From positions 20,617-84,616 of the forward strand of contig JACNGE010000011.1 in NCBI GenBank assembly GCA_014384285.1: a DNA stretch of 64,000 nt, read 5' to 3'. Made by a program: the position numbers and the translations under genes. How positions within the stretch are numbered: position 1 is the first letter of the stretch; the number at the start of each line of letters is the position of its first letter. Positions 643-58,908 of this stretch are shown here, piece after piece. The notes under the pieces were generated by a model that did not search any database, was not told the DNA's origin, and saw only the letters and a program-made list of their open reading frames with translations. This DNA is from Actinomycetota bacterium (GTDB lineage: Bacteria; Actinomycetota; Acidimicrobiia; Actinomarinales; Actinomarinaceae).

Positions 643-669
643 TTTATCACAATCCACTAGAGTAAAAGT

Positions 670-3388: not shown

Positions 3389-3408
3389 TTATAACTTAAT
3401 AGTTTATG

Positions 3409-4470: not shown

Positions 4471-4484
4471 ATTACAATCCCCCT

Positions 4485-4514: not shown

Positions 4515-4534
4515 TATCATTATAAAAGTAGGTT

Positions 4535-7244: not shown

Positions 7245-7254
7245 TTTTACCTTT

Positions 7255-8505
7255 TTAATTATTTTGTTTACTGCGTAACTTATTTATTAGGTTGTCAGGC
7301 AGTTCAATAGAGTCTCTAGGAATAGGTTCTCCTTGTTTAACCTCTCCGACAACGGTTGCTCCCTCAATCAGACCTAAGGGGGCTAGCCCCTCTGTTTCTG
7401 AATAGGGGTAAGCAACTCCATAGGAGCAGAAGCCACCAATTCCATCTATTGTGTCTCCGGGTTTCAAATTTTTCTTTGCATGACCAATTACCTCTGAAAT
7501 CCATGTTGTTGGCTGTAGTCCTGGTTCGTTATTAATAATTGCCATTCCAACACTTCTTGGTGCTTCGACAGAAGCTAAATGATAGGGCCTGTAAAGAGTG
7601 TAATAAGGGCCTTCACCCATAGACAGATATGCCATTTCCTCAATAATTGTTGGGTTATCTGTTGTAACAATTGAAAATACTCCTGGCGCTGGTCCAAAAG
7701 CAAAATCTACTCTCCCAGGTTCTTTCAAAACACCTCCATCTGATGTTGGAATTAGAGTCTTGTTTAGCTCTGAAACTTCACTAACAGGCCCATTCATTCC
7801 AACCTTGTCTAAAGGCATGCCTATGCCATTAGACAAAGAGGTCATCTCAATCATTGTTTTACTACCATCTACAAAGCTTGCAAGCATTTTTGGATTCATA
7901 TTTTTTTGTACTGCTCTTTCTTTTAATGAATCAGGTGTAGCAGTTTGATCTAATGGATTGTTTTTTCCTTTTCCAATACAAACTACTTCAAAACCTATAT
8001 CAACTGAGAAGTCATACAATTCCTTGCATGCCACAGGTTCATCCCCATTTGCAACACTATATACTATTCCTTTTTCTTTTGCTTTTTGAGCTAGGTATAG
8101 ACCTATCGTGATATCTGTTTCAACATTAAGCATTAAAATATGTTTACCTGCTTCAATACAACTTGAGGCTACTTCTGCACCAACCCATGGAACCCCTGTA
8201 GCTTCAAATACAATATCTATTGGAAGTTCTGCCAACTGTTTGGCGTCGTTAACTATTCCGCCATGACCGTTTGAGATTGAAGAAATTGCATCTTTGTTAT
8301 GCCCTATACTTTTCATGCCAGCAAGACCTAAGGCGTTTTCTGCTCTTTTATTGTCAATGTCAGCACAAGCTACTAATTCCATGCCAGGAATACGACTAAT
8401 TTGAGCTGCTAAGCCAGAACCCATTTGCCCAGCACCAGCAAGGCCAATACGTACTGGCCTTCCCAAATCTTTCTCTCTTTTAATAAGTTCTTGTGTGAAG
8501 TTCAT
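7255..8505 (-). CDS. NAD(P)-dependent oxidoreductase with homoserine-dehydrogenase-like Rossmann domain and C-terminal SAF domain
   Basis: 416 aa. N-terminal GLAGAGQMGSG dinucleotide-binding motif. C-terminal Gly-rich beta-rich region (LKPGDTIDGIGGF..) looks like a SAF domain. Confidence 0.5.
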   Translation of the reverse strand: MNFTQELIKREKDLGRPVRIGLAGAGQMGSGLAAQISRIPGMELVACADIDNKRAENALGLAGMKSIGHNKDAISSISNGHGGIVNDAKQLAELPIDIVFEATGVPWVGAEVASSCIEAGKHILMLNVETDITIGLYLAQKAKEKGIVYSVANGDEPVACKELYDFSVDIGFEVVCIGKGKNNPLDQTATPDSLKERAVQKNMNPKMLASFVDGSKTMIEMTSLSNGIGMPLDKVGMNGPVSEVSELNKTLIPTSDGGVLKEPGRVDFAFGPAPGVFSIVTTDNPTIIEEMAYLSMGEGPYYTLYRPYHLASVEAPRSVGMAIINNEPGLQPTTWISEVIGHAKKNLKPGDTIDGIGGFCSYGVAYPYSETEGLAPLGLIEGATVVGEVKQGEPIPRDSIELPDNLINKLRSKQNN

Positions 8506-8862
8506 TTAATTAATCTCTATCGTGTCGTCTACTTTTACTTCTGGCTTATTGGAAAAACTACAATTAACATCTCCAGGTAATGCTGCTTCTGTTGATGAAT
8601 CAAGTTTTAGAACTAGGTGACCTAAGTTAACAAAATTTTCATTTGCTACGGGGCCAACTGCTGTAACCGTGAGCTCTTCGTTAGATAAATTTATTGTTGT
8701 TCCAACTACAATTTCTCCAGTAACTTCTTTTAACTCATGGACAACGGCTACATCTTGTAGTTCTTCTGGAGCATTGTCTCCAAAAAATACAACTATTCCC
8801 TCTTCTAAAAATAAGTGGGCTTGTTCCCCAATTTTTACTATTTTAGAAGAGTAGACCCCCAC
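8506..8862 (-). CDS. srlB: PTS EIIA, glucitol/sorbitol family
   Basis: 118 aa. Pattern ..TAVGPVANENF.NLGHLVLKLD....LPGDV.. is collinear with E. coli SrlB (TAVGSVAEDNLRELGHVTLRFD...FPGTV). Confidence 0.7.
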   Translation of the reverse strand: MGVYSSKIVKIGEQAHLFLEEGIVVFFGDNAPEELQDVAVVHELKEVTGEIVVGTTINLSNEELTVTAVGPVANENFVNLGHLVLKLDSSTEAALPGDVNCSFSNKPEVKVDDTIEIN

Positions 8863-9239
8863 TATATTTCAGTAATCTGATCTTCGCCTACGCCTGAAAC
8901 AAAGTTTTCTTCTCTAATGAACTGGGCCAACGGACCTGCTGGAGAAGTGTCATGTATGTCAATGGTTGGAACACCCTTCATTGGATAAACTCCTATTCTT
9001 GCAGTTCCACCGCAGTCAATTACCGCACAGGCCATAGCTTTAAAACCACCCTCTGGAGATGATTTAAAACCGTCAAATGGCTCTGCACCAGTCATATCTG
9101 CAATTTTTTGTGCTACTGGATGAATACCTCCACCGGTAATACAAACAACATATTTTTTTTCATCTGTAGGCTTTACTTCTAATGGGCCTCCCCATCCTCC
9201 AGGTCCTCTTTCGATTTTTACCTTTTTGTATTCTGCCAT
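8862..9239 (-). CDS. srlE: glucitol/sorbitol PTS EIIB domain; matches the N-terminal half of SrlE, encoded as a separate ORF
   Basis: 125 aa. KIERGPGGWGGPLEVKP...VIDCGGTARIGVYPMKGVPTIDIH...GPLAQFI is collinear with E. coli SrlE residues ~1-120. Confidence 0.75.
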   Translation of the reverse strand: MAEYKKVKIERGPGGWGGPLEVKPTDEKKYVVCITGGGIHPVAQKIADMTGAEPFDGFKSSPEGGFKAMACAVIDCGGTARIGVYPMKGVPTIDIHDTSPAGPLAQFIREENFVSGVGEDQITEI

Positions 9240-9258
9240 TTTTGCTCCTTAAATTATC

Positions 9259-9290
9259 TGTGACGCTCTAATTTTACTCAGAGCGCCACA
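9259..9290 (-). other. strong RNA hairpin in the spacer between the two srlE halves (11-bp stem including one G-U pair, 10-nt loop)
   Basis: tgtgacgctct-aattttactc-agagcgccaca. On the minus-strand transcript the arms pair perfectly except for one G-U. Not followed by a U-run. The RBS aaggag for the downstream ORF follows. Confidence 0.35.
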
Positions 9291-9316
9291 AAAAATGAAA
9301 TTGTTGTCTTTGAAGT

Positions 9317-9841
9317 TTACAAACCTAGTGCAAACAACCAACCAACAACAACTGAGATAGGTCCAGTTATCATTCTACTTGTTAGAACGGCTGGAACACC
9401 AATCTCTACTGTTTCCGGTTCTGCCTCACCTAATGCGAGACCTACTGGAACGAAATCACAACCAACTTGTGGGTTGATTGCAAATAATGCCGGCAGTGCC
9501 ATAGAAACATCTACGTTTCCACGTCCAATCTCTGTTCCAACTAGAACACCAACGATTTGAGCTATTACAGCTCCAGGTCCTAGCAATGGTGACAAGAATG
9601 GAATTGAACAAACGATACAGACAAGCATCAAACCAACAAGGTTATTTGCAAATCCTTTAATTCCTTCAGCTATAACATCTCCAACTCCTGTTGAAAGGAT
9701 TAATCCGATAACACCAGCAACGAATGCCATGAATGGAATAATTGTTTGAATACATAGCTGTATAGCATCTCGACCTGCTTGAAATAGTTTTCCAACTACT
9801 CCACCAACAGATCTACCTATTTTTTCAATCATACTTTGCAT
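9317..9841 (-). CDS. srlE: glucitol/sorbitol PTS membrane domain; matches the C-terminal half of SrlE, encoded upstream of the IIB half
   Basis: 174 aa. ..LFQAGRDAIQLCIQTIIPFMAFVAGVIGLI...SIPFLSPLLGPGAVIAQIVGVLVG...LPALFAINPQVGCDFVPVGL.. is collinear with E. coli SrlE residues ~150-319. Confidence 0.75.
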   Translation of the reverse strand: MQSMIEKIGRSVGGVVGKLFQAGRDAIQLCIQTIIPFMAFVAGVIGLILSTGVGDVIAEGIKGFANNLVGLMLVCIVCSIPFLSPLLGPGAVIAQIVGVLVGTEIGRGNVDVSMALPALFAINPQVGCDFVPVGLALGEAEPETVEIGVPAVLTSRMITGPISVVVGWLFALGL

Positions 9842-10383
9842 TATTCAGCACCGACCTTTCTTGAAGACATTATTGAATAAATGATGTCAGTTGTGACACC
9901 TCTAATCAAAATAACGACAAGCCCAGCAAGTAAATATCTTACTGCTAAAGGCGTTACTAATTCTGGAGCCGCAATCTCAACTCCAGCAGCAATTCCTAAC
10001 CATACGAATAACTCTCCACCATTTGCATGTGGAAATATTCCCGTAATTGGATGAACAAAACTAACTGCAGCATCATAGAATGCTGGTTTGTTTTTTTCTG
10101 GTAAAAAAGTACCGAATGTATAGCAAACTGGGTTTGTCAGCATAAACACAGCTACAAAAGGTAGCAATGTATATCGAACTGGAACATACATCCAGCCCTC
10201 CTGAGCAGCCCACTTGGCAAAGTTTTCAACCTTATCTTCACCAATGAATTTGACCAATGCATTTACTGCGGTCAAAAACACCACTATCAACGGGATAATA
10301 CCAGTAGTCAAGCTGACAAATACATCTGCTGATGTTCTAAAAACACCAATAAACGCATCGGCCATACTAACTAATGTGTCCAT
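9841..10383 (-). CDS. srlA: glucitol/sorbitol PTS EIIC component
   Basis: 180 aa. ..GIIPLIVVFLTAVNALVKFIGEDKVENFAKWAA...FLPEKNKPAFYDAA..PHANGGELFVWLGIAAG.. is collinear with E. coli SrlA. Confidence 0.8.
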   Translation of the reverse strand: MDTLVSMADAFIGVFRTSADVFVSLTTGIIPLIVVFLTAVNALVKFIGEDKVENFAKWAAQEGWMYVPVRYTLLPFVAVFMLTNPVCYTFGTFLPEKNKPAFYDAAVSFVHPITGIFPHANGGELFVWLGIAAGVEIAAPELVTPLAVRYLLAGLVVILIRGVTTDIIYSIMSSRKVGAE

Positions 10384-10404
10384 TTTTCCCCCTTCTTTAT
10401 ATTT

Positions 10405-10782
10405 CTAATTAGAAACACTCTCTGAATCCTCATTAATTTTTTTAATTAATGTATTTGCAGCCATGGCCGCAGCATCATTAAGTGGATCTTTTCCGCCAGA
10501 GTCCGAAAACTCTGACAAACTTTTGTTAATCATCTCTGTAACTTGTTGTCCTTTTGCAAAAACTGTTGTTCCTTTGAGTGTTATAGCGTCGACTATAATT
10601 TTTTGAGGATTGGCAGACATGGCTAGATAAACTCTTTTTCTTCCCCATTTGGGCTGATTGGTACCTATAGCAACAGTTAAATTTTCACCGTGTAGTTCTT
10701 TTACAACATTCATAAAACTTACTGCTTGTTTTTTTGCAAGCTGCATTTGTAGAACCCACATACCAGCAAGTCCTAAAAACAA
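10405..10782 (-). CDS. gutM: glucitol operon activator GutM-like small protein
   Basis: 125 aa with an N-terminal TM helix. Central ..IVDAITLKGTTVFAKGQQV.. resembles GutM (..IVDTLFMKGLTVFARPQKI..). First gene of the srl-like operon. Confidence 0.5.
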   Translation of the reverse strand: MFLGLAGMWVLQMQLAKKQAVSFMNVVKELHGENLTVAIGTNQPKWGRKRVYLAMSANPQKIIVDAITLKGTTVFAKGQQVTEMINKSLSEFSDSGGKDPLNDAAAMAANTLIKKINEDSESVSN

Positions 10783-35853: not shown

Positions 35854-36796
35854 ACTTAATCCTTTCTCACTTGCTTTAATAAGTATTTTCACTACATTTT
35901 TACTATTTGCATTCTTTGGGTACAACGGCTGGGGGCCAGCAGCAGAAAATGAACAAGCTATTGGTGAGATTTCTAGATGGTGTGAACGTGTAAGTAGTGG
36001 ATTCTTTAGAGAACCAGCAAATACTTTAGGAAACTTAGGATTTGTAGTTGTCGGTTTGTATATGTTTTTTAGACTTTCAAAAGATGCCACACAGGGAAAT
36101 ACTCCTCTATTTGGATCATTCAAGATTGCTCTTCTTTACGCCTCAGCATCTACCTTTTTAGGACCAGCTTCAATGGCTATGCATGGAACTCATACTAGAT
36201 TTGGAGCGTGGTTAGACAATGTGTCAATGATTTCTTACATTCTTATTTTATGGATTTACAACTTAAAGAAACTCACAAAATTCTCTTCACGGACATTCTT
36301 CATAATATATTCAACACTTTTAGCATATTACGCCTATAGCTATTGGTATCTTGATAGCGGATTGGGGATTGGTGTTGACTTATTTGAACTTAGTATTGGT
36401 TTGTGGATTGCTACTGAAGTACTAGTAAAGATGCCGAATATTTATGGGAGACTACTTTCTGGTTTAACCGTCTTGTTAACTCAACAGCTTTTTGGTAGTT
36501 CTGTTATTGATTCTCTACAGAACCTACAAGAAAACTGGGAGATGCTTTTATATTTTATTCCAGCTTTAATTCCTAATTTAGAGGGGGGTACTATTAGAAA
36601 GTACACTCCATGGTTCTTTATTGGTGTTGCTTCATTCTTTGGTGCACTTATTATCTGGGAAACTGGTGTCCCTGACCATCCATGGTGTGAGCCAGATTCA
36701 TGGCTACAGGCGCACATGGTTTGGCATTTACTTTGTGCAGCAGCAACTTTAAGTTTCTTTAATTTTTTTAGAACTGAAAGAACAATTACGGTCTGA
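35837..36796 (+). CDS. integral membrane protein (hypothetical; ceramidase-like hydrolase is a weak possibility)
   Basis: 319 aa, ~7 TM helices, conserved His residues (..MHGTHTRF.., ..WHLLCAAA..). Overlaps the upstream PLP-enzyme gene by 17 nt. Confidence 0.35.
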   Translation: MLQRNKLNPFSLALISIFTTFLLFAFFGYNGWGPAAENEQAIGEISRWCERVSSGFFREPANTLGNLGFVVVGLYMFFRLSKDATQGNTPLFGSFKIALLYASASTFLGPASMAMHGTHTRFGAWLDNVSMISYILILWIYNLKKLTKFSSRTFFIIYSTLLAYYAYSYWYLDSGLGIGVDLFELSIGLWIATEVLVKMPNIYGRLLSGLTVLLTQQLFGSSVIDSLQNLQENWEMLLYFIPALIPNLEGGTIRKYTPWFFIGVASFFGALIIWETGVPDHPWCEPDSWLQAHMVWHLLCAAATLSFFNFFRTERTITV

Positions 36797-39311
36797 GGTA
36801 CATTAAGTCTTTTTGGTTTAGCTCAACTATTTCTCGAGAAAAGTAATTTGTGTACATATCATTCGATATCCAGTTATCAACCTGATCATCGTAGTATTTA
36901 GACATCACATGACCAGATTGACCTGATGGAATTACCGTTCGCGAATTATCTAAATCACTCAGATCAACAACCATTCTCATAGAAGGGTAGCTTCCAATTG
37001 TAAAATCTTCACCAAAACCCCAGTCTGTAGAGTTAATAGCAAAGTTTGACCCACTTGATGCAACAGGGCCAATATTTACAAGATTTGTGAGAATTGGAAT
37101 GCCGGCTTCCCCAAGTAAATTTGTAGGATAAGTAATAGTATGTATTTCTCCCCATTCCCAATCATCACTATCTGTAGAATCGAAAATTTCAATAATTGAT
37201 TTATCAGAAAGAGCTAAAGTTCTCTCTAAAATATCAGTCAAGTTTTCTTTTTCAGGTGTATTAATATCGTCCCAAATAATGTGATTTGGATCTTTTAATA
37301 ATGTCCTAAATATTTCTGAAGTAGAATCAGAATTACCTGGTTGTAAAGATATTTCATTCCCTGCATTATCAAAAACAACTAATTCTTCAAAAGTTTGCCC
37401 AACAAGAGATTTATAGAATACCGCCCAAGCAGATGCTCCTGTTGAATCAATATTCATTTCAAACTTCTCATCACTAATTGCCCATTCTTTTAGTTCTGTC
37501 AATACTTGCGAATCAATATACACATTATTGAAAACATAAGGTAAAACATACGCAGCTGAGTAATCAAAGTTATCGATTTGCATTGCCTGCATATCATCTA
37601 CAGAAATTTTATTTATCATATATTGGTTTATTACTCGCTCAATAGCTTTGGCCCTATAGCCCCTAGCGTAATAATTTGGCCATGGCTGATCTGGATGAAC
37701 AGATTGATTGGCAGTAATGATATAACCTGAAGAAGGATTCAAAGAATATGGAAGGTCTTCAAATGCTACAAACCCCTGCCAATCATTTTCACTAAACCAA
37801 CCTTCAATTGGCAAGTCTCCATAAAGTCCTTCTTTTCTAATTGGTAATTTTCCAGGTGACTGATATGCTATATTTCCATCTCTGTCGGCATACAACAGAT
37901 TCTGAGCAGGAACGTGAAACTTTCTAGTAGCTTCTCTAAATTCTTCCCAGTTAGATGCATAGTTAAATTCTCTAATTCCTACAAAGGTTTTCCCAGGCAC
38001 TAGTGCTGACCAAGAAAGAGAAACTGCAAAATCATTAGGTAAATTGATGCGTGCCTCTTCTCTGAAAGTACTTTCTCCCTCTTCTGATATTAGGTTTATA
38101 GGGAAGCTTCTATCTGAAACTACTGGTCCGTGGTGTGTTTCTCTAACTTCAATAACTATTGGTTCTGAGCCTGCAACATCAATTATCTCAGTTGTTCTCT
38201 CCATATCTATCCAAACGTCATCAACTTGATACTGGTTTTCGTTGTTTGGATTAATTTTTTCAATAAATAAGTCTTGTACATCTGGACCCATATTTGTGAA
38301 ACCCCAAGCAATATCACTGTTGTAGCCAATTATTACATACGGGGAACCAGCAAATGAAAATCCTGCTGAATCTAGTTCACATTCTCTATTTTTGGGAAAG
38401 CAATGTAATCCATTTTCATACCATATGGCAGGCAATTGCACCGATAGGTGTGGGTCATTAGCTAATAATGGTAATCCTGTATCTGTGAGAGTACCGTCAA
38501 CTACCCAGGAATTTGAGCCTAGTGATTGATTAGTTTGCATGTCTTTTGTTACATATTTAATAAAAAATGATTGTGTCATTTGCTGAAAACTATTTGCTTT
38601 TCTACTGGAAGCAAATGAGCCTTTTCCTTCCCATTCTTCAACAATGTAAGGATGGCTTTCTGGATATGGTGGAGTTAATAAATTATAAATTTCGGGTGTC
38701 AAAGTGTTATATGTTTTTGAATTTGCTATTTCAGAAGTAAAATTGCCATTTAAATCATACGCCATCATCTTTGCCCAAGCTAGTGGATAGTAGGGTTCAT
38801 ATGTGTCAACAACATAGTCAGGGTTTATAAACTGTAAGACAAAATGTTCAAGACTCAATCTATTTTGCGGACGTGATTCAATATACGCATTAACTCCATT
38901 TGTATAGTTAATTAAATCTTGTTTAAATTCTGGTTCTAAGTTTTCGTATTCTTCGAGTGCGATTTTATGAAAACCAAAAGTCCTAAAAAGTAAGTCAGCT
39001 CCGACACCCGGTTCTCCAATTAGAGATGCTAGTCGACCAGTACTTAGGTGACTCCAGAATTCAAGTTGCCAAAATCTATCCTGTGCGTGCACATACCCTT
39101 GAGCAAAAAGAATATCATCTACATTTGTTCCATATATATGAGGTATACCCCTTTCATCTCTTATGATTTCAACAAAGTCAGTTAAGGGAAGTCCAGTAAC
39201 ATCAATTTCATGATCTGGAAGAGGCATTCTAAAAATTACTATTCCTACAATTATGACTAGTGCCTGTATGCCAATAAGTGTGACTACTAGCCACTTAAAG
39301 AATTTTCTCAA
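36786..39311 (-). CDS. penicillin acylase family protein (peptidase S45; penicillin amidase / AHL-acylase-like Ntn hydrolase)
   Basis: 841 aa. N-terminal signal-anchor. Internal ..TNQSLGSNSWVVDG.. carries the beta-subunit N-terminal nucleophile Ser (SN.W) typical of PGA/PvdQ-type enzymes. Confidence 0.8.
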   Translation of the reverse strand: MRKFFKWLVVTLIGIQALVIIVGIVIFRMPLPDHEIDVTGLPLTDFVEIIRDERGIPHIYGTNVDDILFAQGYVHAQDRFWQLEFWSHLSTGRLASLIGEPGVGADLLFRTFGFHKIALEEYENLEPEFKQDLINYTNGVNAYIESRPQNRLSLEHFVLQFINPDYVVDTYEPYYPLAWAKMMAYDLNGNFTSEIANSKTYNTLTPEIYNLLTPPYPESHPYIVEEWEGKGSFASSRKANSFQQMTQSFFIKYVTKDMQTNQSLGSNSWVVDGTLTDTGLPLLANDPHLSVQLPAIWYENGLHCFPKNRECELDSAGFSFAGSPYVIIGYNSDIAWGFTNMGPDVQDLFIEKINPNNENQYQVDDVWIDMERTTEIIDVAGSEPIVIEVRETHHGPVVSDRSFPINLISEEGESTFREEARINLPNDFAVSLSWSALVPGKTFVGIREFNYASNWEEFREATRKFHVPAQNLLYADRDGNIAYQSPGKLPIRKEGLYGDLPIEGWFSENDWQGFVAFEDLPYSLNPSSGYIITANQSVHPDQPWPNYYARGYRAKAIERVINQYMINKISVDDMQAMQIDNFDYSAAYVLPYVFNNVYIDSQVLTELKEWAISDEKFEMNIDSTGASAWAVFYKSLVGQTFEELVVFDNAGNEISLQPGNSDSTSEIFRTLLKDPNHIIWDDINTPEKENLTDILERTLALSDKSIIEIFDSTDSDDWEWGEIHTITYPTNLLGEAGIPILTNLVNIGPVASSGSNFAINSTDWGFGEDFTIGSYPSMRMVVDLSDLDNSRTVIPSGQSGHVMSKYYDDQVDNWISNDMYTNYFSREIVELNQKDLMYLRP

Positions 39312-49893: not shown

Positions 49894-51162
49894 TTAGATA
49901 TCGTTAATGAATGTATCTTGAAAACTCTGTCTATTAACCAACTCAACTACACTAGATTCAGTTACTGCAACCACACCTGACTTTGGTACTCTATTGTAAT
50001 TACTAGCCATAGCAAAAGTATACGCACCAGTTGATGTTGACATTAATATATCACCGGACTCCGTATCACTTGGCAACATTGCCTCTTTTACCAATAAGTC
50101 GCCACTTTCACAGTGTCTTCCAGAAACAGCATACACCGTATCTTCTCCATTTTTTCCACTAGAGATATTAAAGAGTTTGTGTTCGCTGCCATACAATGCT
50201 GGCCTTGGATTATCAGACATCCCACCATCAACAAGAATGTAGGGTTTCTCTCCACGATCATCTTTAAGCGCACCAGCAGTGTACAGTATCACGCCAGGAT
50301 TATTGACTAATGCTCTTCCAGGTTCAATCATGACCCTGTAGTCATCCTGCCAATGTTCTTGAATTCCAGCATGAATAGCATCAGCATAGACTTTTAATTC
50401 ATGGTCTACTTCATCACCTGCATAGGGTGAAAAGAACCCACCTCCAGCATCAAAGACGACTTCGGCTTGAATGGCTGCACGATGCTTATAGAGAAACTCT
50501 GCACACTCACTCATTGCTTTTTGATAACGTTCAGGATCTTTTATCTGACTACCAATATGGACATGAATGCCTGAAAACAACAAGGACGGTGCATCATAAA
50601 TCTGTTTCAAAGCCTCTTCTGCAAAACCTATTGAGATACCAAATTGCTGGTCATATCCTGTAGTCAGCACCATTGGATGTGTCTCTGCTCCCACATCTAA
50701 ATTGATACGCATAATAACTGGTTGTTGTCTGCCTAATTTAGAGGCGGCAGCTTCCAACATAGGAATCTCATAGCGATTATCAATAGAGATATGTCCACCC
50801 TCGTTTTTCATGAAAAACTCAATTTCTTCAATACTTTTATAAGTACCGTTAAATAATGTATTTTCTAAGCTTCCCGTGACTGCTTGTACAGTTGCCATCT
50901 CTCCACCTGAGACAACATCTACTCCCCAACCTTTTTCATGTAATTCTTTTACCAGAGCCTTACAGATAAATGCTTTTGCAGCGTATCGAAAAAGAGTCTC
51001 TGAACCAAAAGCATTTGAGAAGTGATCAATATTATCTTTGAGGTGCTCCCAGTCGTACACATACAATGGTGTTCCGTATTCTTTACCAACATCAAGCAAT
51101 GAAGTATCTCCTATGTGAGCGACTCCATCTTTAAATGAAAGATTAGAGGGTAAGTAATTCAT
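49894..51162 (-). CDS. PLP-dependent decarboxylase, fold-type III (diaminopimelate decarboxylase-like)
   Basis: 422 aa. ..YGTPLYVYD.., ..VFDAGGGFF.. and ..GRHCESGDLL.. are hallmark motifs of the LysA/Orn-decarboxylase TIM-barrel family. Confidence 0.75.
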   Translation of the reverse strand: MNYLPSNLSFKDGVAHIGDTSLLDVGKEYGTPLYVYDWEHLKDNIDHFSNAFGSETLFRYAAKAFICKALVKELHEKGWGVDVVSGGEMATVQAVTGSLENTLFNGTYKSIEEIEFFMKNEGGHISIDNRYEIPMLEAAASKLGRQQPVIMRINLDVGAETHPMVLTTGYDQQFGISIGFAEEALKQIYDAPSLLFSGIHVHIGSQIKDPERYQKAMSECAEFLYKHRAAIQAEVVFDAGGGFFSPYAGDEVDHELKVYADAIHAGIQEHWQDDYRVMIEPGRALVNNPGVILYTAGALKDDRGEKPYILVDGGMSDNPRPALYGSEHKLFNISSGKNGEDTVYAVSGRHCESGDLLVKEAMLPSDTESGDILMSTSTGAYTFAMASNYNRVPKSGVVAVTESSVVELVNRQSFQDTFINDI

Positions 51163-51944
51163 TTTTTAAGACGACGCTTTATCCATGCAATATCTTTTTT
51201 CTGTGCCTCAACGCCACCTGGAGTTTCAACAATAATGTCTGATTTACAGTTCTTAATAACGTACTCAAGCTCTGCTTTTGGAATATTACCTTTACCTAAA
51301 TTCTCATGTCGATCTCTGCTGCTTTCAAATCCATCTTTAGAGTCATTGAAGTGAACCAGGTCTATCTGTTTAGTGAGTTTTTTAAATCCTTTTACTGCTT
51401 TCTCTGTGGGGATACCTCCAGCCCATGTGTGGCAAGTATCTAAACAAAGTCCAACATTCAAGTCACCAATCACTTCCCAGAGTCGTTCAATAGAGTCCAT
51501 ATAACGAGCAACAGAGTTTTTTCCTCCAGCAGTATTTTCTACCAATACTCGCATACCTGTGTCTTCCACAAATTCAATGGCTTTTCTCCAGTTATCGTAT
51601 CCCTCTGCAATGTCTCCACCTTCACCAACAGAACCTCCGTGAACGATAACCGCTTTAGCTCCAAATGAAGCTGCTACTTTACATGTGTCTTTAAGTAATT
51701 TTCTACTGGGATGTCTTACTTTATTGTTAGGTGTTGCCACGTTAATTAAGTAGGGTGCATGTACATATATAGGGCCTTTGTAGCCTTGCAATGCATCAAT
51801 ATCTTCACGGGGTTTAGGGCTCTTCCACATTTGAGGGCTAGAAACAAATATTTGGAATGTATCACCTTTGCGGAGTTTAATCTCCTCAATTGCATTTTTT
51901 GAAGGTATATGTGAACCAATATTCATGGGTATATTATAAAGCAA
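51159..51944 (-). CDS. nfo: endonuclease IV (AP endonuclease family 2)
   Basis: 261 aa. ..IYVHAPYLINVA.., ..VIVHGGS.. and ..LCLDTCHTWAGG.. correspond to the three Zn-site signature blocks of Nfo. Confidence 0.75.
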   Translation of the reverse strand: MLYNIPMNIGSHIPSKNAIEEIKLRKGDTFQIFVSSPQMWKSPKPREDIDALQGYKGPIYVHAPYLINVATPNNKVRHPSRKLLKDTCKVAASFGAKAVIVHGGSVGEGGDIAEGYDNWRKAIEFVEDTGMRVLVENTAGGKNSVARYMDSIERLWEVIGDLNVGLCLDTCHTWAGGIPTEKAVKGFKKLTKQIDLVHFNDSKDGFESSRDRHENLGKGNIPKAELEYVIKNCKSDIIVETPGGVEAQKKDIAWIKRRLKK

Positions 51945-51966: not shown

Positions 51967-53556
51967 TTATCCCATTACCTGTTCTGAACCAACCAGGATA
52001 TACACACACTGTGGATTGGCAAACTGTTCATTATTATCTACAACAGTAATTTCCAGTGCATTATTTACATTTTTAATTTCTACACTTGCACCCTGAGCTG
52101 TGCTTAAATCAAGATCAAGGCAGATATTCACTACTTTAATATCTGCAGCGGTAGCACCTTCAACTAACCATTTCTTTGTTGGAGCTTGTGTTGGTCCAGT
52201 ATTTAGTGAGGTTATTGTGTAATTCGTCGTTACACGTTCTGTGAAAATAAGGACTCCACCTTTTCGACTACTAAAATTACCAAATGCCAACAATTGTCGA
52301 CCATTAGATAAATCAAGAAAATCAGGGTCACCTCCTGGTGGAAGGTACTCTACTTGAGACCAAGTAACTCCATCAGGTCCTTTTCTATACTCCATGTAAT
52401 CATATGTAGGCCAGATCCACTCTACAACTCCTGTTGCATTGAGCTTAATTGCTGGGTTTGTAGTAACGTCTGTATCTCCACCATAAGAACGATCTACCTG
52501 GACACCCCAAGTAAGACCATCACTTGAAGTTGCTACACATGCTCTTCTGTTGAAGGAACCTGAAGGACTCACTAACTCTTGAACATGAAAAATCCAAGAA
52601 CCATCATTGAGTTGCGTAATTGTAGGATCTCCTAACGGTCCAAAAGAGTTTCCATCACTATCCTTACAGTCTGCTTGTAAAAACCTTGGAATATCCACTT
52701 TTTGAAAATTTACTCCATCTGAGGATTCATACTTAACTAAAGAGTCTCCTGTTGATGAAAGCTCCCAACCCCATGCAGATACTTTTCCATCAAATACTAA
52801 GGCTTCAATAGGAGACCGAACTGGAACTCGAACACCAGACTCTACAACCCATGTTCTCCCACCGTCACTAGACACCGCAGAGTGAATTAGGTTATCGTAC
52901 CCACTTATACCTGCTTGCGGTTCATTACCATTCTTAAAATATACCCTGAGTATCCCTTCACTAGTTTCTACTATTGATGGATCGGCAATGTTTCCTAGAC
53001 TATTTTCTAAACTTCTTATCGAACCTAGGTAAGAAAGGTGCATTGAGCTTAAGGTAGTTTCTTGAATTATTGGACTTCCTTGACCGGGTTGGTTGCTTTC
53101 TCCTAAAGGAGGTTTACTGCCTGCACTTCCCGGCTGACCTCCTGGCATACCAGGGTCTGGCGGAGGCGGTATATTGCATCCTTTAAAGGATTCTTTGTAT
53201 TGCTCCTGAATTGACCCTCCTGAAAGAAAATCTTTCTCCATCTGTCTAATAACATCAGCTCCTGCTTTATCTACTAAACAAATTTGTTCTCTTGCAAGTA
53301 AATTAAAAAAGATGCCTTGGGGGAACTCATTTAATAATTCTTTAACGATGTCTTCAATTGACACTGTATCTGAGGAAGTTTTTTTAATGTCTGTGTTTTC
53401 AGACTCCACACTACCTTGTGTTTCTTTTTGGGTGGTTGCTTTATCATTTTCAGTACTTTGATCTGACACAGGTTGTGAACTGTCACCTCCACCAGCACAG
53501 GCAACAACTATAAGAAAACTTACTACTGCGGTTACTGATCTGGTATTTTTTTTCAC
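51967..53556 (-). CDS. large lipoprotein with Pro/Gly-rich linker and BNR/Asp-box repeats (sialidase-like beta-propeller)
   Basis: 529 aa. Lipobox ..LIVVACAGG... Low-complexity PPPDPGMPGGQPGSAGSKPP. Asp-boxes SSDGGRTW and SSDGLTW. Confidence 0.5.
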   Translation of the reverse strand: MKKNTRSVTAVVSFLIVVACAGGGDSSQPVSDQSTENDKATTQKETQGSVESENTDIKKTSSDTVSIEDIVKELLNEFPQGIFFNLLAREQICLVDKAGADVIRQMEKDFLSGGSIQEQYKESFKGCNIPPPPDPGMPGGQPGSAGSKPPLGESNQPGQGSPIIQETTLSSMHLSYLGSIRSLENSLGNIADPSIVETSEGILRVYFKNGNEPQAGISGYDNLIHSAVSSDGGRTWVVESGVRVPVRSPIEALVFDGKVSAWGWELSSTGDSLVKYESSDGVNFQKVDIPRFLQADCKDSDGNSFGPLGDPTITQLNDGSWIFHVQELVSPSGSFNRRACVATSSDGLTWGVQVDRSYGGDTDVTTNPAIKLNATGVVEWIWPTYDYMEYRKGPDGVTWSQVEYLPPGGDPDFLDLSNGRQLLAFGNFSSRKGGVLIFTERVTTNYTITSLNTGPTQAPTKKWLVEGATAADIKVVNICLDLDLSTAQGASVEIKNVNNALEITVVDNNEQFANPQCVYILVGSEQVMG

Positions 53557-53613
53557 CTAGTTTGATTATATACAATTCTTTTTTCAGAAAAAATTACGAT
53601 TTCAGTAATTTGA

Positions 53614-55998
53614 TTATTTTGAAGGGAGAAAGCCTAGAAGCCTATTAGAAAACTTATACTCGCCAACCCAGAAATGATATCCGTCCCAACTAATTCCTGA
53701 TGCCATCTTTGTACCCATATTTGTTTTATCAGTTCTTCCTCCAAAGCTCATCGTTGGGGAGCTACCAGCTAAAGCATCTGAAATTGAGTTCCAACCAATA
53801 ATCTTGTCATCGCTTGGAATAAATAATCCTTTTTCATTAAAGCTCACTTCTGATGGGCAGTCCTGACCTGGTACAGTTTGATATGAAGGTGCACTTAGAG
53901 AAGAAAGTTCTAACACTTTGAAACTTGATCCACCTGGATAACAACCAATTGCTAAATGTGTATCATTCATGTCTATTCTTCCTAAGTTTGAAAGATTTGG
54001 AAGTGAATATGTAGGGTTGTCAGATTTTCCAGGAACACCCTCCCAAATATAAATTGTATCCGAGCCTGAATCTGCAACTGCAAAATAACTGCCGTTATAA
54101 GCTATTCCTCTAACACCTTGAAATGTGATATTACCAATAGACTTTTCATTTAAATCAAAACTGTAGTTACCTGTATTTATTGTATTTTCAATATCGCTCC
54201 ATCCAAATACACTGTTACCGCCTGCTAAATAAATCTCTTTACCGTGAACAACTAAGTCCCAAGGTGGTTGATCGAACCTTCTCATGACTATATCTGGTGT
54301 AGCACCAGAACTTCCAGGAAGCTGTTTCCAAATTGAAAGCGATCTATCGAAATCAGATGAGACAAAAAGCATTGAACCATTAGAGTCAATTATTGGATTT
54401 TGAATAATAAATTCGTCTATCAAAGGGTAGTCTGTCGGTTCGTTAGCAAGTAGTGCCCAGTCTGGTTTCTCTGTTGGAGAAGTAGGAATTGTATCAAAAA
54501 CAGATATTCGGTTTCCATTATATTCAGCAACAAATAATTTACCATCTACAACTGTTGCTCCTCCATCATCTCCGCCAGCCCATCTATGGCCTTCTCCTGG
54601 ATTAGCTATTTTTACATTTATCTGTAATTCTTGCGTACTGGTATAAAGTTCATCATAAAAATACATGGTCTCTCCACCTGCAGCAATACCATAAATTTTT
54701 GAATCATGAATAGTACCTGCGAGCCAGTTGTCTATACAGGCGTCTGGATCTCTTGAAGATGTTGGCCATGAAGTCCATACATGGGTTGAGCGAGTCCCGT
54801 TTAACCCTATACATGGACCATTTGCATTTTCATCACCAAGCATTACATAGTTACCATCTGAAAGAATAGACCTAGGAGTACCAACTTGACTCGATGTTAA
54901 AACAACATCTGGCGATATGGATGGACCTGGAAAAGAGTTCCAAAATAAAACTGCTTTTGCGACAGTTGCTGTAACAACAACTTTCGTGCCATCTGACCAA
55001 ACACCCCAAGGCCACGAGTCACCAAAATTTACATAGTTAGTAATTGGGAGTGCATAATCAGCAGTCTGGCCAGAAGATGATGGAAAGGATGTCCAAACAA
55101 GGACTCTATTATTATCTGAATCCGCTACTAGTACTTTTCCATCGGGAGTAATAATTACTTGACCTGGAAAATCCATATTGTTTAAACCAGTTCCAGAATT
55201 ATGTGTTGTAAAATTTGCTTGTCCTAAAACTAAATCTGGTGGTGTGTTTGATGAGGGAATAGTGTTCCAGATTAATACTCTATTGTTGAATCTGTCAGTA
55301 ACGGCTAGCTTTCCATAATTTGCTGAAATTGAGACAGGGTGATTTAACTTGTTAGCACCTCCTGTATTATTGAACCCATAGCCGGAAAGTAGAATGTCTC
55401 CTGTTTCATTTAACCCATACCCAGTTTTTCCATTTGAGGTCGCAACAGAGTAATTTGGGGAGTATTCATAAACACTCAAGTCATACCATGAACCCATGTT
55501 TTTTTCATCATCACGATCTGGATTAGAGTTCCCTGAGGGAGGTGTTGCGCTATCACCATTATTATCGCTTCCTCCTGCGGGTGGTTGAGCTACATTGTTT
55601 GAACTACTTGGATCTTCGAAGCATGCAATCACAATTCCTGACTCAAAGCTATCTGGGTTTAAATCAGTGACTATATTTTGATAAATCTCAGTTGGCAATG
55701 ACTTAGAGATGCACTCTAAAACCTCGTCTTCTGCTTCTTTTAAGATTTCTACAGCTTTTTCTATATCACCACCACTATTTTGAGGTGGTGGCGGATTGTC
55801 TCCTCCTTGAGGTGGTGGCGGATTTTCTTGTTTTTTATCATTCTCTGGCAAATTTTCCTCTCCAGGAGGAGGCATATTTTCCAAACCTGGAGGGTCTGTG
55901 GGAGGCGGATTTTCTTTAATTTCTGAAGTATTTTCTGGACTAGAACAGGCTTGAAAGAGTAGAAAGAGTATTAACCCTATATTTATTGACTTTTTCAT
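53614..55998 (-). CDS. large lipoprotein with Pro-rich linker and NHL/beta-propeller-like repeats
   Basis: 794 aa. Lipobox ..LLFQACSS... PPP-rich segment. Recurring ..NNRVLIW.., ..NNRVLVW.., ..GNRISVF.. repeat cores. Confidence 0.5.
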   Translation of the reverse strand: MKKSINIGLILFLLFQACSSPENTSEIKENPPPTDPPGLENMPPPGEENLPENDKKQENPPPPQGGDNPPPPQNSGGDIEKAVEILKEAEDEVLECISKSLPTEIYQNIVTDLNPDSFESGIVIACFEDPSSSNNVAQPPAGGSDNNGDSATPPSGNSNPDRDDEKNMGSWYDLSVYEYSPNYSVATSNGKTGYGLNETGDILLSGYGFNNTGGANKLNHPVSISANYGKLAVTDRFNNRVLIWNTIPSSNTPPDLVLGQANFTTHNSGTGLNNMDFPGQVIITPDGKVLVADSDNNRVLVWTSFPSSSGQTADYALPITNYVNFGDSWPWGVWSDGTKVVVTATVAKAVLFWNSFPGPSISPDVVLTSSQVGTPRSILSDGNYVMLGDENANGPCIGLNGTRSTHVWTSWPTSSRDPDACIDNWLAGTIHDSKIYGIAAGGETMYFYDELYTSTQELQINVKIANPGEGHRWAGGDDGGATVVDGKLFVAEYNGNRISVFDTIPTSPTEKPDWALLANEPTDYPLIDEFIIQNPIIDSNGSMLFVSSDFDRSLSIWKQLPGSSGATPDIVMRRFDQPPWDLVVHGKEIYLAGGNSVFGWSDIENTINTGNYSFDLNEKSIGNITFQGVRGIAYNGSYFAVADSGSDTIYIWEGVPGKSDNPTYSLPNLSNLGRIDMNDTHLAIGCYPGGSSFKVLELSSLSAPSYQTVPGQDCPSEVSFNEKGLFIPSDDKIIGWNSISDALAGSSPTMSFGGRTDKTNMGTKMASGISWDGYHFWVGEYKFSNRLLGFLPSK

Positions 55999-56159
55999 AT
56001 ATATTCTATTATACGAAAATTTAATGAAATATAAATATTTAATAAATAATCAGTAGACTTATTACTAAGACTTCCTTTTGTGCCTTGAACCACTTTAACA
56101 GGGCATGATAAAGCAAAAATTACAGCCACGAGGGAGTCTTTTGCATTTTTTCTTGGAAT

Positions 56160-57437
56160 TTAATTTTTTATATGTATTTTTAAGTCTTTTCTTGGAAAAG
56201 GAATAGGTGCAGGATTAACTATAAGTGGTTCTGTTGATGAAATCTCCTCGATGTTTGAAACTAATTTATAAATGACATTTTTAAACAAATAACTAGCAAA
56301 GAACTTCCCAAGGCAGGTGTGTGCTCCCCCAGAAAATGGGTAATAAGCTTCATTTGGTTCTTCTGTGTTTAAAAATCGCCTTGGATTGTATTTCTCAGGT
56401 TCCTGCCAGTAACGATTATCATTATGTAAAACAAGGGGACCAATAGCAACATAAGTTCCTGCCTCTAATTTATAATTATCAACAACTGTATCCCTCATAA
56501 CATATCTTACTGAGAAAGGGACAGGTGGGTACATTCTCATAGCTTCAGAAAATAAAGACTCCCCTTTAATACCATTTTTTAAGTCTGTGGTATCTGTATA
56601 AGACATCTCACTACATTCCTCTCTCAATTCTTGATAAAAAGTCTGGTCTATAGAGAGATGGTGAATAGCAGAAGTTAATGTACTTGTAGTTGTGTCATGA
56701 GCAGCGAGTAGTAAAAAAATCATGTGCTCAGCAATTTCATAATTGCTTAATCCACCTTCATGTTTATTTGTTTTAACTAATTCTGCAAACAAAGTATTTG
56801 ATTCTGTATTTACATTTTCTGCTTTATTTTCAAAATATTCAAGTAGGGACTTTCTAGCTTTAAGGCCTTTTCTTAACTTGGTAAAAGGTAATGGGATTCT
56901 TACCACAGAGGTTGCAGATTTGATTGCATCGGTAAACAACTTTTCTAGTTCCTTTTGTCTAGAGCTGTCAATTTCATCAAAGAAAAGTTCAAGGGAGATT
57001 TTAAACATTAACTCTTTTATGGTCGCATACAAGTTAAATGATTTGCTATTTTGTAGATCGTCAATCCAAGAGTCAAGCAAGGGTTGTACTATCTGTAAAT
57101 AGTTAGCTAAAGCATCTCGTCTAAAAGAGTCTTGTAGTAAACCTCTATGAAATCTATGATCATCAAAATCTCTTAACATCAAACCATTTTCAAAGGTCTT
57201 TCCTAGAGAAAATTCCCATCCATGCTTGGATGAAAAATTATCTTCTGTGTCAAGATAAATGTGTTTTGTTGCACTAGGGGTCATAAACAATGTCACTCTT
57301 TTGTGCAGAATGGAGATTTCGAAGATATCACCGTGCTTTTGTTGTAAGTTTTTAACTAATGATAAAGCATCATTATTAAATTTTATTGAGTGACCAAAAA
57401 GGAAGTTTCCTTTATCTAGTGGTGGCTTAGTCATCAT
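56160..57437 (-). CDS. cytochrome P450 (second copy, different family)
   Basis: 425 aa. Heme loop FSGGAHTCLGKFFA (FxxGxxxCxG), ExxR ..SEAMRMYPPVP.., I-helix ..LLAAHDTTTS.. Confidence 0.8.
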   Translation of the reverse strand: MMTKPPLDKGNFLFGHSIKFNNDALSLVKNLQQKHGDIFEISILHKRVTLFMTPSATKHIYLDTEDNFSSKHGWEFSLGKTFENGLMLRDFDDHRFHRGLLQDSFRRDALANYLQIVQPLLDSWIDDLQNSKSFNLYATIKELMFKISLELFFDEIDSSRQKELEKLFTDAIKSATSVVRIPLPFTKLRKGLKARKSLLEYFENKAENVNTESNTLFAELVKTNKHEGGLSNYEIAEHMIFLLLAAHDTTTSTLTSAIHHLSIDQTFYQELREECSEMSYTDTTDLKNGIKGESLFSEAMRMYPPVPFSVRYVMRDTVVDNYKLEAGTYVAIGPLVLHNDNRYWQEPEKYNPRRFLNTEEPNEAYYPFSGGAHTCLGKFFASYLFKNVIYKLVSNIEEISSTEPLIVNPAPIPFPRKDLKIHIKN

Positions 57438-57467
57438 ATATAGATAACTGTAAATAAAAATATTTTA

Positions 57468-57622
57468 AAAAGCAAAAATCCCAGTTGATCTTGCGACCCT
57501 CCGGGATTTTCTATTCTATTTCATTTTCGGTCTTGCGACTTCTTTTTCTATAGTGTGTAATAAATGTACCTAACTATCGGCATTTTGGCAAAATTTTTTA
57601 AGGTGTTTTTTTCGCGAACTTT
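57468..57622. repeat. copy 1 of a ~150-bp direct repeat (core aaagcaaaaatcccagttgatcttgcgaccctccgggattttcta...cggtcttgcgacttctttttct.tagtgt)
   Basis: ~90% identical to 58185-58337 over the first ~105 bp, then conserved islands (tttttcgcgaa). Contains an AAAATCCCaG/CcGGGATTTT hairpin plus a T-rich tail, and an internal direct duplication tcttgcgac. Confidence 0.7.
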
Positions 57623-57645
57623 TATGCATATTATTTATATTTTTA

Positions 57646-58146
57646 TTGAATTTTGAATATTATCTACTTATGAACATAAGGTTGTTTAAAAAAAGTGATT
57701 GGAATCAGGTTAAGACAATCTACCAATTAGGAATAGATACAGGTGTAGCAACTTTTGAGACTACTCCTCCAGCAAATGTCTCACTCTGGTTAGCAAAAAT
57801 AAATCCTAAATTGACTTTTGTTTTAGGGGAGGGAGATGAACTACATGGATGGATAACATTAAGTAAAATATCTTCGCGGTGTGTCTACGAAGGGGTAGGG
57901 GAAATCTCAATTTATGTTCACCCACATTACCAAAAAAGGCATGTAGGCAAACTGCTTTATCGACATCTAGAAACAGAGGCTAAAAACTGTGGGTACTGGA
58001 CCTTACAAGCACAACTCTTTACAGAGAATCTTGCCTCGAAAGAATTTTTTGAAAAACAGGGTTTTAGACAAGTTGGAACAAGAAAGCGAATAGGGCAGTT
58101 GGAAAATCGTTGGATTGATAATTACCTCTATGAAAAAAGTTTATAA
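57646..58146 (+). CDS. GNAT family N-acetyltransferase
   Basis: 166 aa. ..EISIYVHPHYQKRHVGKLLYRHLE.. (motif A Q/RxxGxG/A-like acetyl-CoA loop) and overall GNAT size and topology. Confidence 0.7.
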   Translation: MNFEYYLLMNIRLFKKSDWNQVKTIYQLGIDTGVATFETTPPANVSLWLAKINPKLTFVLGEGDELHGWITLSKISSRCVYEGVGEISIYVHPHYQKRHVGKLLYRHLETEAKNCGYWTLQAQLFTENLASKEFFEKQGFRQVGTRKRIGQLENRWIDNYLYEKSL

Positions 58147-58184
58147 ATTAGAAATAAATTCTTTTAAGTTGTAATTAACATTAC

Positions 58185-58337
58185 AAAGCAAAAATCCCAG
58201 TTGATCTTGCGACCCTCCGGGATTTTCTACACTATTTCTTTTTCGGTCTTGCGACTTCTTTTTCTTTAGTGTCTTATAAATATACGTTAGTTTTTACTCT
58301 TACGCAAGATATTTACTAATCTATTTTTCGCGAAGTT
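58185..58337. repeat. copy 2 of the ~150-bp direct repeat, located between the convergent GNAT gene and the 58423-58908 gene
   Basis: See copy 1. In this position the hairpin plus T-run could serve as the GNAT terminator on the + strand. Confidence 0.7.
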
Positions 58338-58422
58338 TGAGAGCTTTTTGCAGCTTGGATAACTGCGCATTTAACAACAACAAAGATGGATTAAACATGG
58401 TGAGAAAATCTTTTATCTATTT

Positions 58423-58908
58423 TTAAGTTACATTTCCAGAATTTAGGTCATCAATAAAGCTCTGCAACTCATCGGTGTCCGTATTTTCTATCAAGACAGA
58501 GTAGGTCTCTTTATCAAAGATAAGCTTTAGATATTCCTCCTCTAAAATGACTTTTCGTAAATCTTGAATATCTTCGACAACAGTTAATAACTTTTCTGAT
58601 GTTCTCATTGCTATTTTGTATTCTGAGACTTCAAGTATTGGTTGAAACATGCTTTGTACAGCAGTAAATAATTGGAAGCCACCAACAATTAGAATGAGGT
58701 AGTATAAAACCTCCTCTCTGGGGTTAGAGCCAAACTCATTTAAGGTAATGTAGTTTTTTAAAAACTCTCTAAACGGCCCATTAAAAATGTTATCAATAGA
58801 AACATAGGAGAGGAAAAAACCTGTAAGAAGGATTGGGGTCATTTTTTGTTGTGTTCTATAAAGTGTTCTTTGCATAATTTTATTTCTTTTCTTATCAGAA
58901 TAACTCAA
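58423..58908 (-). CDS. hypothetical membrane protein
   Basis: 161 aa, two or three TM helices. No motif recognised. Confidence 0.35.
   Translation of the reverse strand: MSYSDKKRNKIMQRTLYRTQQKMTPILLTGFFLSYVSIDNIFNGPFREFLKNYITLNEFGSNPREEVLYYLILIVGGFQLFTAVQSMFQPILEVSEYKIAMRTSEKLLTVVEDIQDLRKVILEEEYLKLIFDKETYSVLIENTDTDELQSFIDDLNSGNVT

Follow-up and report, generated by a model that had tools for sequence, protein, structure and literature searches.

The repeat pair and its predicted RNA

In the 64,000-nucleotide (nt) stretch of Actinomarinaceae DNA analysed here (assembly GCA_014384285.1, contig JACNGE010000011.1, positions 20,617 to 84,616; hereafter the window), a gene for a GNAT acetyltransferase lies between a cytochrome P450 gene and O150, which encodes a 150-amino-acid (aa) hypothetical protein, and is bracketed by two copies of a non-coding module that we call E (Table 1). 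Here we present evidence that E is a previously undescribed, conserved small-RNA-like gene of Candidatus Actinomarina, as judged from its sequence, and we consider it reasonably probable that the repeats are sibling copies of a promoter-to-terminator small-RNA (sRNA) gene module, read from the minus strand, which bounds a variable gene slot.

A sequence-only reading of this DNA had described the GNAT gene as bracketed by direct repeats of about 150 bp, each with a hairpin, a T-rich tail and a duplicated TCTTGCGAC, and all of these features were found. A repeat search returned a single 158-nt direct repeat at 57465-57622 and 58181-58338 (spacing 716), whose edges are the flanks of the GNAT open reading frame (ORF). 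The copies agree at 97/105 positions (92.4%) counted from 57465 and at 129/158 (81.6%) over the full repeat, including exact blocks of 45 nt (57469-57513 and 58185-58229) and 25 nt (57525-57549 and 58241-58265), while the 60 nt on each side are only 28-33% identical. Each block occurs twice in the window and has no match in shuffles of it, and a covariance model searched over the 64 kb finds only the two copies, at 106 and 104 bits, with the next best hit at 21 bits. That the repeat is a structured element and not a chance resemblance is thus borne out.

The fold is carried by the minus strand. Fold z-scores for the two copies were -3.5 and -4.8 on that strand, compared with -0.55 and -2.0 on the plus strand, and an invariant G.U pair in helix P4 is compatible with the minus strand only; together, these observations rule out a plus-strand reading, under which the repeat had been taken for a plus-strand terminator. 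The minus strand forms an 11-bp stem enclosing a GGUC-GCAA-GAUC stem-loop, followed by UUUUUGCUUU, with a GUC-GCAA-GAC hairpin upstream. Because this strand carries the fold, the duplicated TCTTGCGAC can be understood as two GNRA-capped hairpins read backwards. The position of the P450-side copy, which had seemed to make no sense for a terminator, is also accounted for, since a minus-strand terminator would end the element's own short transcript just before P450.

The RNA body is about 90 nt long and contains four helices. P1 (CUAUC/GAUAG and variants, 4-6 bp) encloses purine-rich internal loops and P2, which has the form R-UC-GNRA-GA-Y, and P3 (AAAAUCCCGR/YYGGGAUUUU) carries P4, a second GNRA-capped stem. 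Unguided RNAalifold returned the same four helices, and the minimum-free-energy and centroid folds concur on P2 and on the P3/P4 terminator hairpin. Pair counting gave 88.6% of cells paired in 31 diverse sequences, against 26-46% with the partners slid, and 88.8% against 27-48% in 96 distinct sequences placed on the covariance model. In the larger set the covariation score was 0.125, against 0.067 in shuffles, and none of 500 shuffles reached it; the score on the 31 diverse sequences likewise exceeded all 500 of its shuffles. Twelve pairs in the 96 sequences have changes on both sides. P2 is G-C in 43 sequences and A-U in 47 with no mispairs, P1 pairs alternate among C-G, U-A and A-U, and a GNRA tetraloop (GCAA, GAAA or GUAA) caps P2 in every case. 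Conserved secondary structure with covariation, as expected of an sRNA, is therefore present in E. The GC-cored P3 stem and the UUUUUGCUUU behind it, the pattern of an intrinsic terminator, are invariant in the 96 distinct sequences, partly as a sampling effect, the genome sample having been drawn by an exact P3/P4 pattern that makes these helices look more invariant than they may be.

Membership of a known RNA family was ruled out with Rfam, both at gathering thresholds and at E values up to 10. Rfam 15 at gathering thresholds gave no match in the whole window, and with permissive filters over 57400-58400 the best E value was at least 3.3, with scores of 10.9-20.4 bits against gathering scores of 47-98.

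Upstream of the RNA body, 120 distinct modules share one order: AAAGTTCGCGAAAAA, which holds the palindrome TTCGCGAA; TTGC(C/G)(A/T); about 17 nt; TA(A/T/C)ATT; 6 nt; and then ACACUA and the RNA body. Information content peaks at TTCGCG, TTGC and TA.ATT and is highest in the TTCGCGAA box; both hexamers are conserved, the spacers are uninformative and the distances are fixed, with exactly 19 nt between the box and the -35 hexamer in 102/120 modules. Such conserved islands at fixed spacing read as the signature of a promoter with an upstream site, and a promoter scan flags the TTGCCA-17-TACATT of the P450-side copy (9/12 matches). That copy aligns column by column with the element of relatives (alignment A2). 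The TTCGCGAA box is likely a regulator-binding or UP-type site; we know of no LexA or other actinobacterial operator that matches it. The octamer occurs three times in the window, compared with 0.25 expected; the third occurrence, at 36938-36945, lies inside an 841-aa minus-strand ORF (36786-39311) and has no adjoining E. Each E copy would be a self-contained sRNA gene, composed of the TTCGCGAA box, a sigma-70-type promoter (TTGCxx, 17 nt, TAnATT), the RNA of about 90 nt and a terminator, and would be transcribed from its own promoter.

Table 1. Features of the E locus and its surroundings, in window coordinates
Feature	Coordinates	Strand	Basis or detail
E module next to P450 (copy 1 of the sequence-only reading)	57465-57625	-	direct repeat; covariance match 57560-57467, 106 bits
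E module 3' of O150 (copy 2 of the sequence-only reading)	58181-58341	-	direct repeat; covariance match 58276-58183, 103.7 bits
TTCGCGAA palindromic box, P450-side copy	57611-57618	.	invariant in alignment A2; twin at 58327-58334
Predicted promoter, P450-side copy	57563-57591	-	-35 TTGCCA 57591-57586, 17-nt spacer, -10 TACATT 57568-57563, +1 A 57556
Predicted promoter, O150-side copy		-	TTGCGT 58307-58302, 17 nt, TATATT 58284-58279, +1 58272
Predicted RNA of about 90 nt, P450-side copy	57467-57556	-	P1, P2, P3/P4, U tail; twin at 58183-58272
P2 hairpin GUC-GCAA-GAC	57539-57530	-	fold
Terminator hairpin P3/P4	57510-57475	-	fold
GNAT acetyltransferase, 158 aa, cargo between E copies	57670-58146	+	Pfam Acetyltransf_1, _4, _7
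Cytochrome P450	56160-57437	-	Pfam p450, 1.3e-54
O150, 150-aa hypothetical protein, conserved left anchor of slot	58423-58875	-	no Pfam or NCBIfam match
nfo (endonuclease IV), conserved right anchor	51159-51944	-	NCBIfam deoxyribonuclease IV, 321.7 bits against cutoff 244
Hairpin 3' of P450	56108-56150	-	not of the E family; 14.8 bits, E value 1

Genomic contexts of E and contents of the slot

An exact-pattern scan of one genome per species (185,579 species) returned 75 genome stretches, 74 of them from assemblies labelled Actinomarina, Actinomarinales, OCS155 or a broader actinobacterial rank; the remaining one was labelled Methanosarcinales and is probably mis-binned. On this evidence the E family appears restricted to Candidatus Actinomarina/Actinomarinales. 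Genomes of roughly 1.1 Mb hold 2-3 copies (three on a 1.01-Mb contig and three on a 511-kb contig), which is consistent with the suggestion of a dispersed intergenic repeat, at low copy number, and not with a REP-type element present at dozens of sites. No copy was found in viral contigs (IMG/VR), which rules out a phage or viral origin.

Only two chromosomal contexts of E were seen. Two copies stand between O150 and nfo, and a third, in most clades, lies between metK-metY-(metX) and a 5'-3' exonuclease gene followed by tilS. Mapping of gene order at 82 genome loci and 104 metagenome loci (L numbers below) places the first context in a conserved frame of amino-acid permease, 327-aa membrane protein, (two acyltransferases), histidine phosphatase, O150, variable region, nfo and ornithine-type decarboxylase. 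In 90 of the loci examined the gene to the left of the first E is O150, nfo stands at the right end of the variable region in most loci, and the region between normally holds two E copies. Homologues of the P450 identify the host as Candidatus Actinomarina. In relatives whose P450 is 87%, 80%, 70% and 60% identical to that of the window, the same element lies between O150 and P450 throughout. The distance from the O150 stop codon to the TTCGCGAA box is about 80 nt in the window and 2-5 nt in most relatives, and in L028 and L030 the box falls inside the upstream coding sequence.

The slot holds between zero and four genes. Among 123 adjacent E pairs, a sample biased by the search patterns, 44 hold nothing (tandem E-E, 183-227 nt apart), 36 a reversed GNAT, 24 P450 (cargo itself in these lineages, as E-P450-E), six tdh-kbl-GNAT with or without a 441-aa gene, four an NHL lipoprotein, two a 176-aa membrane protein (F26) and seven various singletons. 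GNAT is reversed relative to E, as it is relative to both copies in the window, and P450, F26 and NHL are co-oriented with E. Many related lineages lack a GNAT between O150 and P450; in L021 and L023 a lipoprotein-like NHL-family gene occupies its place between two E copies, and in L028 a DNA-alkylation-repair gene precedes a single copy. Because lineages differ in the cargo between consecutive E copies, the site is polymorphic, an insertion/deletion hot spot. The indel polymorphism proposed as a check on the sequence-only reading therefore exists among related Actinomarina, which may lack the GNAT, carry other genes or have tandem elements, but not within the window's own species, where the order P450(-), E, GNAT(+), E, O150(-) is found in 20/20 conspecific contigs with both copies present.

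Several further observations concern this neighbourhood. One subtype of second-position copies (L032 4102-4194, L053, L081) ends in UUUUCACUUU, not UUUUUGCUUU; about 172 nt separate it from nfo, and in this spacer an ORF of 70-90 aa (f25/F38) is sometimes called. The stretch 51967-55998, between P450 and nfo, contains two minus-strand genes, one for a lipoprotein-like protein of 794 aa with NHL repeats and one for a 529-aa protein that lacks annotation; its GC content is 0.39, compared with about 0.34 nearby. This gene pair shows strain-level presence/absence polymorphism within the window's own species, being absent from other contigs with identical P450 and GNAT (L001 and L011 compared with L003, L007 and L015). 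In L009 (ERZ10646601 contig_19224, 157-10583) a block of about 6.6 kb, O150-HisPhos-M327-AAperm-F18, occurs twice and flanks a truncated 108-aa ORF, P450 and GNAT; either the tandem duplication or rearrangement is genuine or the assembly is at fault. DNA-repair genes adjoin E in several cases, namely nfo, the 5'-3' exonuclease gene and the gene for an AlkD-like protein (L028 5129-5839), and an HhH-GPD glycosylase gene lies a few genes upstream of the third copy (repair-gene loci include L035 and L037). The window nfo protein is 84-96% identical to those of other loci, compared with 37-50% for O150 in most clades and 56-67% for the histidine phosphatase, and among three GNAT-bearing loci the nfo proteins are 96-98% identical; since its identity far exceeds that of O150 and the phosphatase, nfo is either unusually conserved or recently homogenised.

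A hairpin at 56110-56150, downstream of P450, had been described as partially similar to the repeat. The hairpin is real, but its low covariance-model score (over 56108-56199) and its failure to align with the E copies that follow P450 in L024, L028 and L030 exclude it as a third copy; it is probably the P450 terminator.

The GNAT gene had been read as encoding 166 aa; a start at ATG 57670 is more likely than one at TTG 57646. The exact 158-aa product is found in 112 blocks of a public assembly collection (the P450 product likewise in more than 100), and no product from the TTG is on record. A TATTAT at 57658-57663 sits 6 nt before the ATG, which suggests a leaderless GNAT mRNA and weighs against the upstream start. 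Among NCBIfam models ArsN1a (arsinothricin/phosphinothricin-type N-acetyltransferases) comes closest, with 122 bits against a cutoff of 170 that is not reached, and the PDB relatives are phosphinothricin acetyltransferases, a pattern of similarity that places the protein in the phosphinothricin/arsinothricin/methionine-sulfoximine N-acetyltransferase neighbourhood. It is plausible that the gene is an antimetabolite-detoxifying accessory gene.

E-GNAT-E recurs in several clades, where the GNATs are 59-66% identical to that of the window. Between clades, GNAT identity is 58-67% and that of the neighbouring histidine phosphatase 59-65%, and because the two are similar the GNAT can be viewed as an old, differentially retained resident of the slot; the same comparison excludes recent horizontal transfer, except between L050 and L067, whose GNATs are 99% identical against 81-93% for core genes. 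The window departs in the other direction from its nearest clade, with 61% for GNAT against 74-76% for core genes. These departures hint at allele exchange.

Possible functions of E

Based on these observations, we favour a reading in which the E RNAs would be sibling sRNAs that share one regulator and either act in trans or bind a protein. In Candidatus Actinomarina the coding density is about 97%, intergenic spacers have a median length of 2-3 bp, and there are only two sigma factors (PMC7771536). With a terminator standing upstream and promoters downstream in a genome of such short spacers, the interval between local E copies would be a permissive slot, among the few sites where a gene breaks no operon. 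The near-invariant E on both sides would supply homology for recombination, and E-E recombination would shuffle the cargo; permissiveness and flanking homology together would account for the different cargo of different lineages. In the window, the gene in the slot is a GNAT of the phosphinothricin/arsinothricin type, in reversed orientation, and P450 lies immediately beyond the second copy.

It is unlikely, in our view, that E is instead a cis-acting promoter-plus-leader, comparable to an attenuator or riboswitch, that regulates the next gene through termination at P3/P4. The next gene almost always runs in the same direction as E, the E terminator stops just 30-38 nt short of the P450 or exonuclease ATG (28-32 nt short of the P450 start codon for the P450-side copy of the window), and several copies before different operons are typical of leaders. 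The downstream genes, however, are functionally unrelated (P450, nfo, NHL lipoproteins, the 5'-3' exonuclease, or none co-oriented), and the first E is kept where there is no gene to lead, as in the tandem and reversed-GNAT arrangements that make up 80/123 pairs. No alternative anti-terminator pairing is evident, the upstream RNA being purine-rich, and the minimum-free-energy and centroid folds of the element show no competing fold. Many of the junctions read also have a TAnnnT hexamer 6-9 nt upstream of the P450 or exonuclease ATG, as fits leaderless starts; at the exonuclease loci and in one P450 group the distance is 6 nt, which would give a leaderless mRNA. Leaderless mRNAs are common in Actinobacteria. 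These -10-like hexamers of their own weaken a leader function for P450 or the exonuclease, the promoter-like hexamers before P450, exonuclease and GNAT being assignments at the level of consensus.

We assign a similarly low probability to the possibility that E is regulatory DNA only, a bidirectional terminator with a promoter/UP region whose RNA is itself functionless, conserved and duplicated only because every gene of the region requires one. A bidirectional terminator would be expected at copy 2, which separates the convergent genes GNAT and O150, and the terminator tail may have a second role as the -35 element of the next gene: the GC within TTTTTGCTTT forms a -35-like TTGCTT 17 nt from a TA(A/C)AGT before P450 (57437-57478 in the window; also L021, L024, L036, L048 and L102). 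In the window this gives P450 an apparent predicted promoter of its own, TTGCTT-17 nt-TACAGT, with its -35 inside the E tail, and the pairing of TTGCTT with TA(A/C)AGT would explain why the GC in the U tail is conserved. P1, P2 and the GNRA loops, on the other hand, would be needless in a terminator-promoter, yet they covary and hold the GNRA consensus, and the RNA part is more conserved than the promoter spacer.

A cassette recombination site of the integron attC kind, a miniature inverted-repeat transposable element (MITE) or the attachment scar of an integrative element, with the GNAT as a mobile cassette, is very unlikely. Cargo genes are individually bracketed by direct copies and vary between lineages, and some loci have three copies with each gene bracketed (L067, with the order O150 F26 E F26 E GNAT E NHL, and similarly L098). 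Against this, the annotation of 20 conspecific loci, read to 6 kb on either side of GNAT and P450, contains no integrase or transposase, the gene families checked at the genome loci include none that was recognised as such, and the viral contigs hold no copy of E. E has neither terminal inverted repeats nor target-site duplications, the whole module is duplicated with its promoter and not a 3' fragment, cargo lies in both orientations, and empty sites retain two full E copies in tandem where a cassette site would leave one; the divergence of the GNAT looks vertical. Of the cassette-like insertion put forward in the sequence-only reading, the variable site survives; the mechanism does not, and neither does the recency, given the identical arrangement of the conspecific contigs and a GNAT divergence that tracks the core. 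A recent local tandem duplication or insertion in this strain, to which the 92% identity over 105 bp and the exact 45- and 25-nt blocks might point, is scarcely credible, as the two-copy arrangement is present in all 20 conspecific contigs and in distant clades, and the two copies diverge in their promoter halves (60% identity over 57570-57622), each half matching its positional counterpart in other species, that of the O150-side copy resembling the single-position copy after O150 in other clades.

Other patterns suggest that E copies probably do recombine. The copies of one genome tend to share the P3 variant (G/CU or A/UC), the P2 loop variant is common to first and third copies, and in the window clade both local copies have G-type P2 while their promoter halves keep position-specific sequence; gene conversion among copies would be the simplest explanation of the shared variants. 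In the metagenome contigs L107, L119 and L148, metK/metY directly adjoin the slot (as in the order metK metY E E nfo), which would be the expected product of exchange between E copies at the two loci. The reciprocal junction predicted by an inversion model, O150-E-exonuclease, was not seen, and the metagenome pattern, being specific to the second-position copy, would not recover it. We offer as a tentative and rather doubtful extension that the near-invariant E bodies of about 100 nt are the homology arms of an integrase-free cassette-exchange slot, with exchange involving the third copy driving inversions. If true, E would be a recombination landing pad in a highly streamlined free-living genome, with the concerted evolution of the copies as a by-product, and inversions would be driven in a genome otherwise almost without repeats.

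A number of points weigh against the sRNA-and-slot reading. Promoter, transcription start and terminator are predictions from consensus and conservation. Since the genome sample came from an exact P3/P4 pattern, variation in these helices is truncated by design, and the G-C/A-U split in P2 mostly follows paralogue type and may therefore reflect few independent events. To our knowledge, Actinobacteria lack Hfq, and the conserved single-stranded segments of the E RNA are rich in purines, an unusual composition for a seed directed at ribosome-binding sites. E abuts the upstream stop codon, and its conservation could partly reflect a role as terminator or 3' untranslated region (UTR). As for the slot, turnover of cargo appears slow, because the GNAT has diverged in step with the core genes, and for the GNAT itself recombination at E is conjectural.

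E among known RNA genes and repeats

Few free-living marine bacteria are as small or as abundant as Candidatus Actinomarina. In such a genome a 160-bp non-coding module that persists in 2-3 copies throughout the order comes at a cost, so that E presumably matters to its host; no candidate regulatory RNA specific to this lineage would have been described before it, and it offers a direct target for marine metatranscriptome mining. A full-text literature search (sequence motifs; Actinomarina with noncoding or small RNA) found nothing describing E. In a study of resolved Actinomarina genomes (bioRxiv 10.64898/2026.04.03.716425), most genomes had two internal repeats with a median length of 152 bp, and recombination between them was judged unlikely as a mechanism of rearrangement. 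The size and number of these repeats, left uncharacterised there, fit E, and the coincidence of E repeats with a small variable slot and at least three synteny junctions bears on that judgement. An element like E is described neither in that preprint nor in PMC7771536.

The Ca. Actinomarinales have one order-wide flexible genomic island (fGI1), which is additive and has tRNAs as hot spots (Lopez-Perez et al. 2020, PMC7771536). As there, conserved RNA genes flank cassettes of variable content at the E slot, and direct repeats of an RNA gene mark the edges. Whereas the fGI1 repeat is a partial tRNA 3' end, E is repeated as a complete module from promoter to terminator; the slot contains 0-4 genes compared with 43-79 kb, and the locus is neither the described fGI1 nor the hypervariable region. 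Nor does the duplication resemble that of a tRNA-type attachment site, since the entire 158-nt module is duplicated with its box and promoter, ARAGORN detected no tRNA in the window, and no integrase Pfam was found among the genes within 6 kb of GNAT/P450 in 20 conspecific loci.

With integron cassettes and attC sites, E shares single genes separated by a repeated, hairpin-forming element and an array content that varies. E loci differ in having no adjacent IntI/attI, and in place of one-way, promoterless cassettes with one attC each they have a predicted promoter and terminator within E, cargo in both orientations, a copy number of 2-3 and a fixed single copy at an unrelated locus. Repetitive extragenic palindromic (REP) elements, bacterial interspersed mosaic elements (BIMEs) and MITEs are likewise repeated intergenic sequences with hairpins, but their copies number in the tens to hundreds, and they are either short palindromes or delimited by terminal inverted repeats, while E is 160 nt long, asymmetric and present in 2-3 copies, with promoter and covariation signatures. 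The module begins with AAAGTTCGCGAAAAA and ends with GGGATTTTTGCTTT, an inverted-repeat search finds no arm pair at both ends, and no duplicated flanks were seen on reading the modules. Riboswitches and other cis leaders have a consistent class of downstream gene, which E lacks.

Like type I 3'-UTR-derived sRNAs with an internal promoter, such as DapZ and MicL, E starts at or overlaps the upstream stop codon and shares that gene's terminator; unlike DapZ and MicL, it follows unrelated genes (O150, metX/metY, P450 and reversed GNAT). Families of sibling sRNAs with conserved promoters include Qrr1-5 of Vibrio, the CiaR-dependent csRNAs of Streptococcus, LhrC1-5 of Listeria and OmrA/B of enterobacteria. 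From these E differs in its unpaired segments, which are purine-rich and not anti-Shine-Dalgarno-like, and in its host, an Hfq-less and extremely streamlined actinobacterium, in which it is known from sequence alone. As in these families, there are several near-identical genes of about 90 nt per genome, some in tandem, and each copy has its own conserved predicted promoter, upstream box and intrinsic terminator, with an RNA body more conserved than the spacers.

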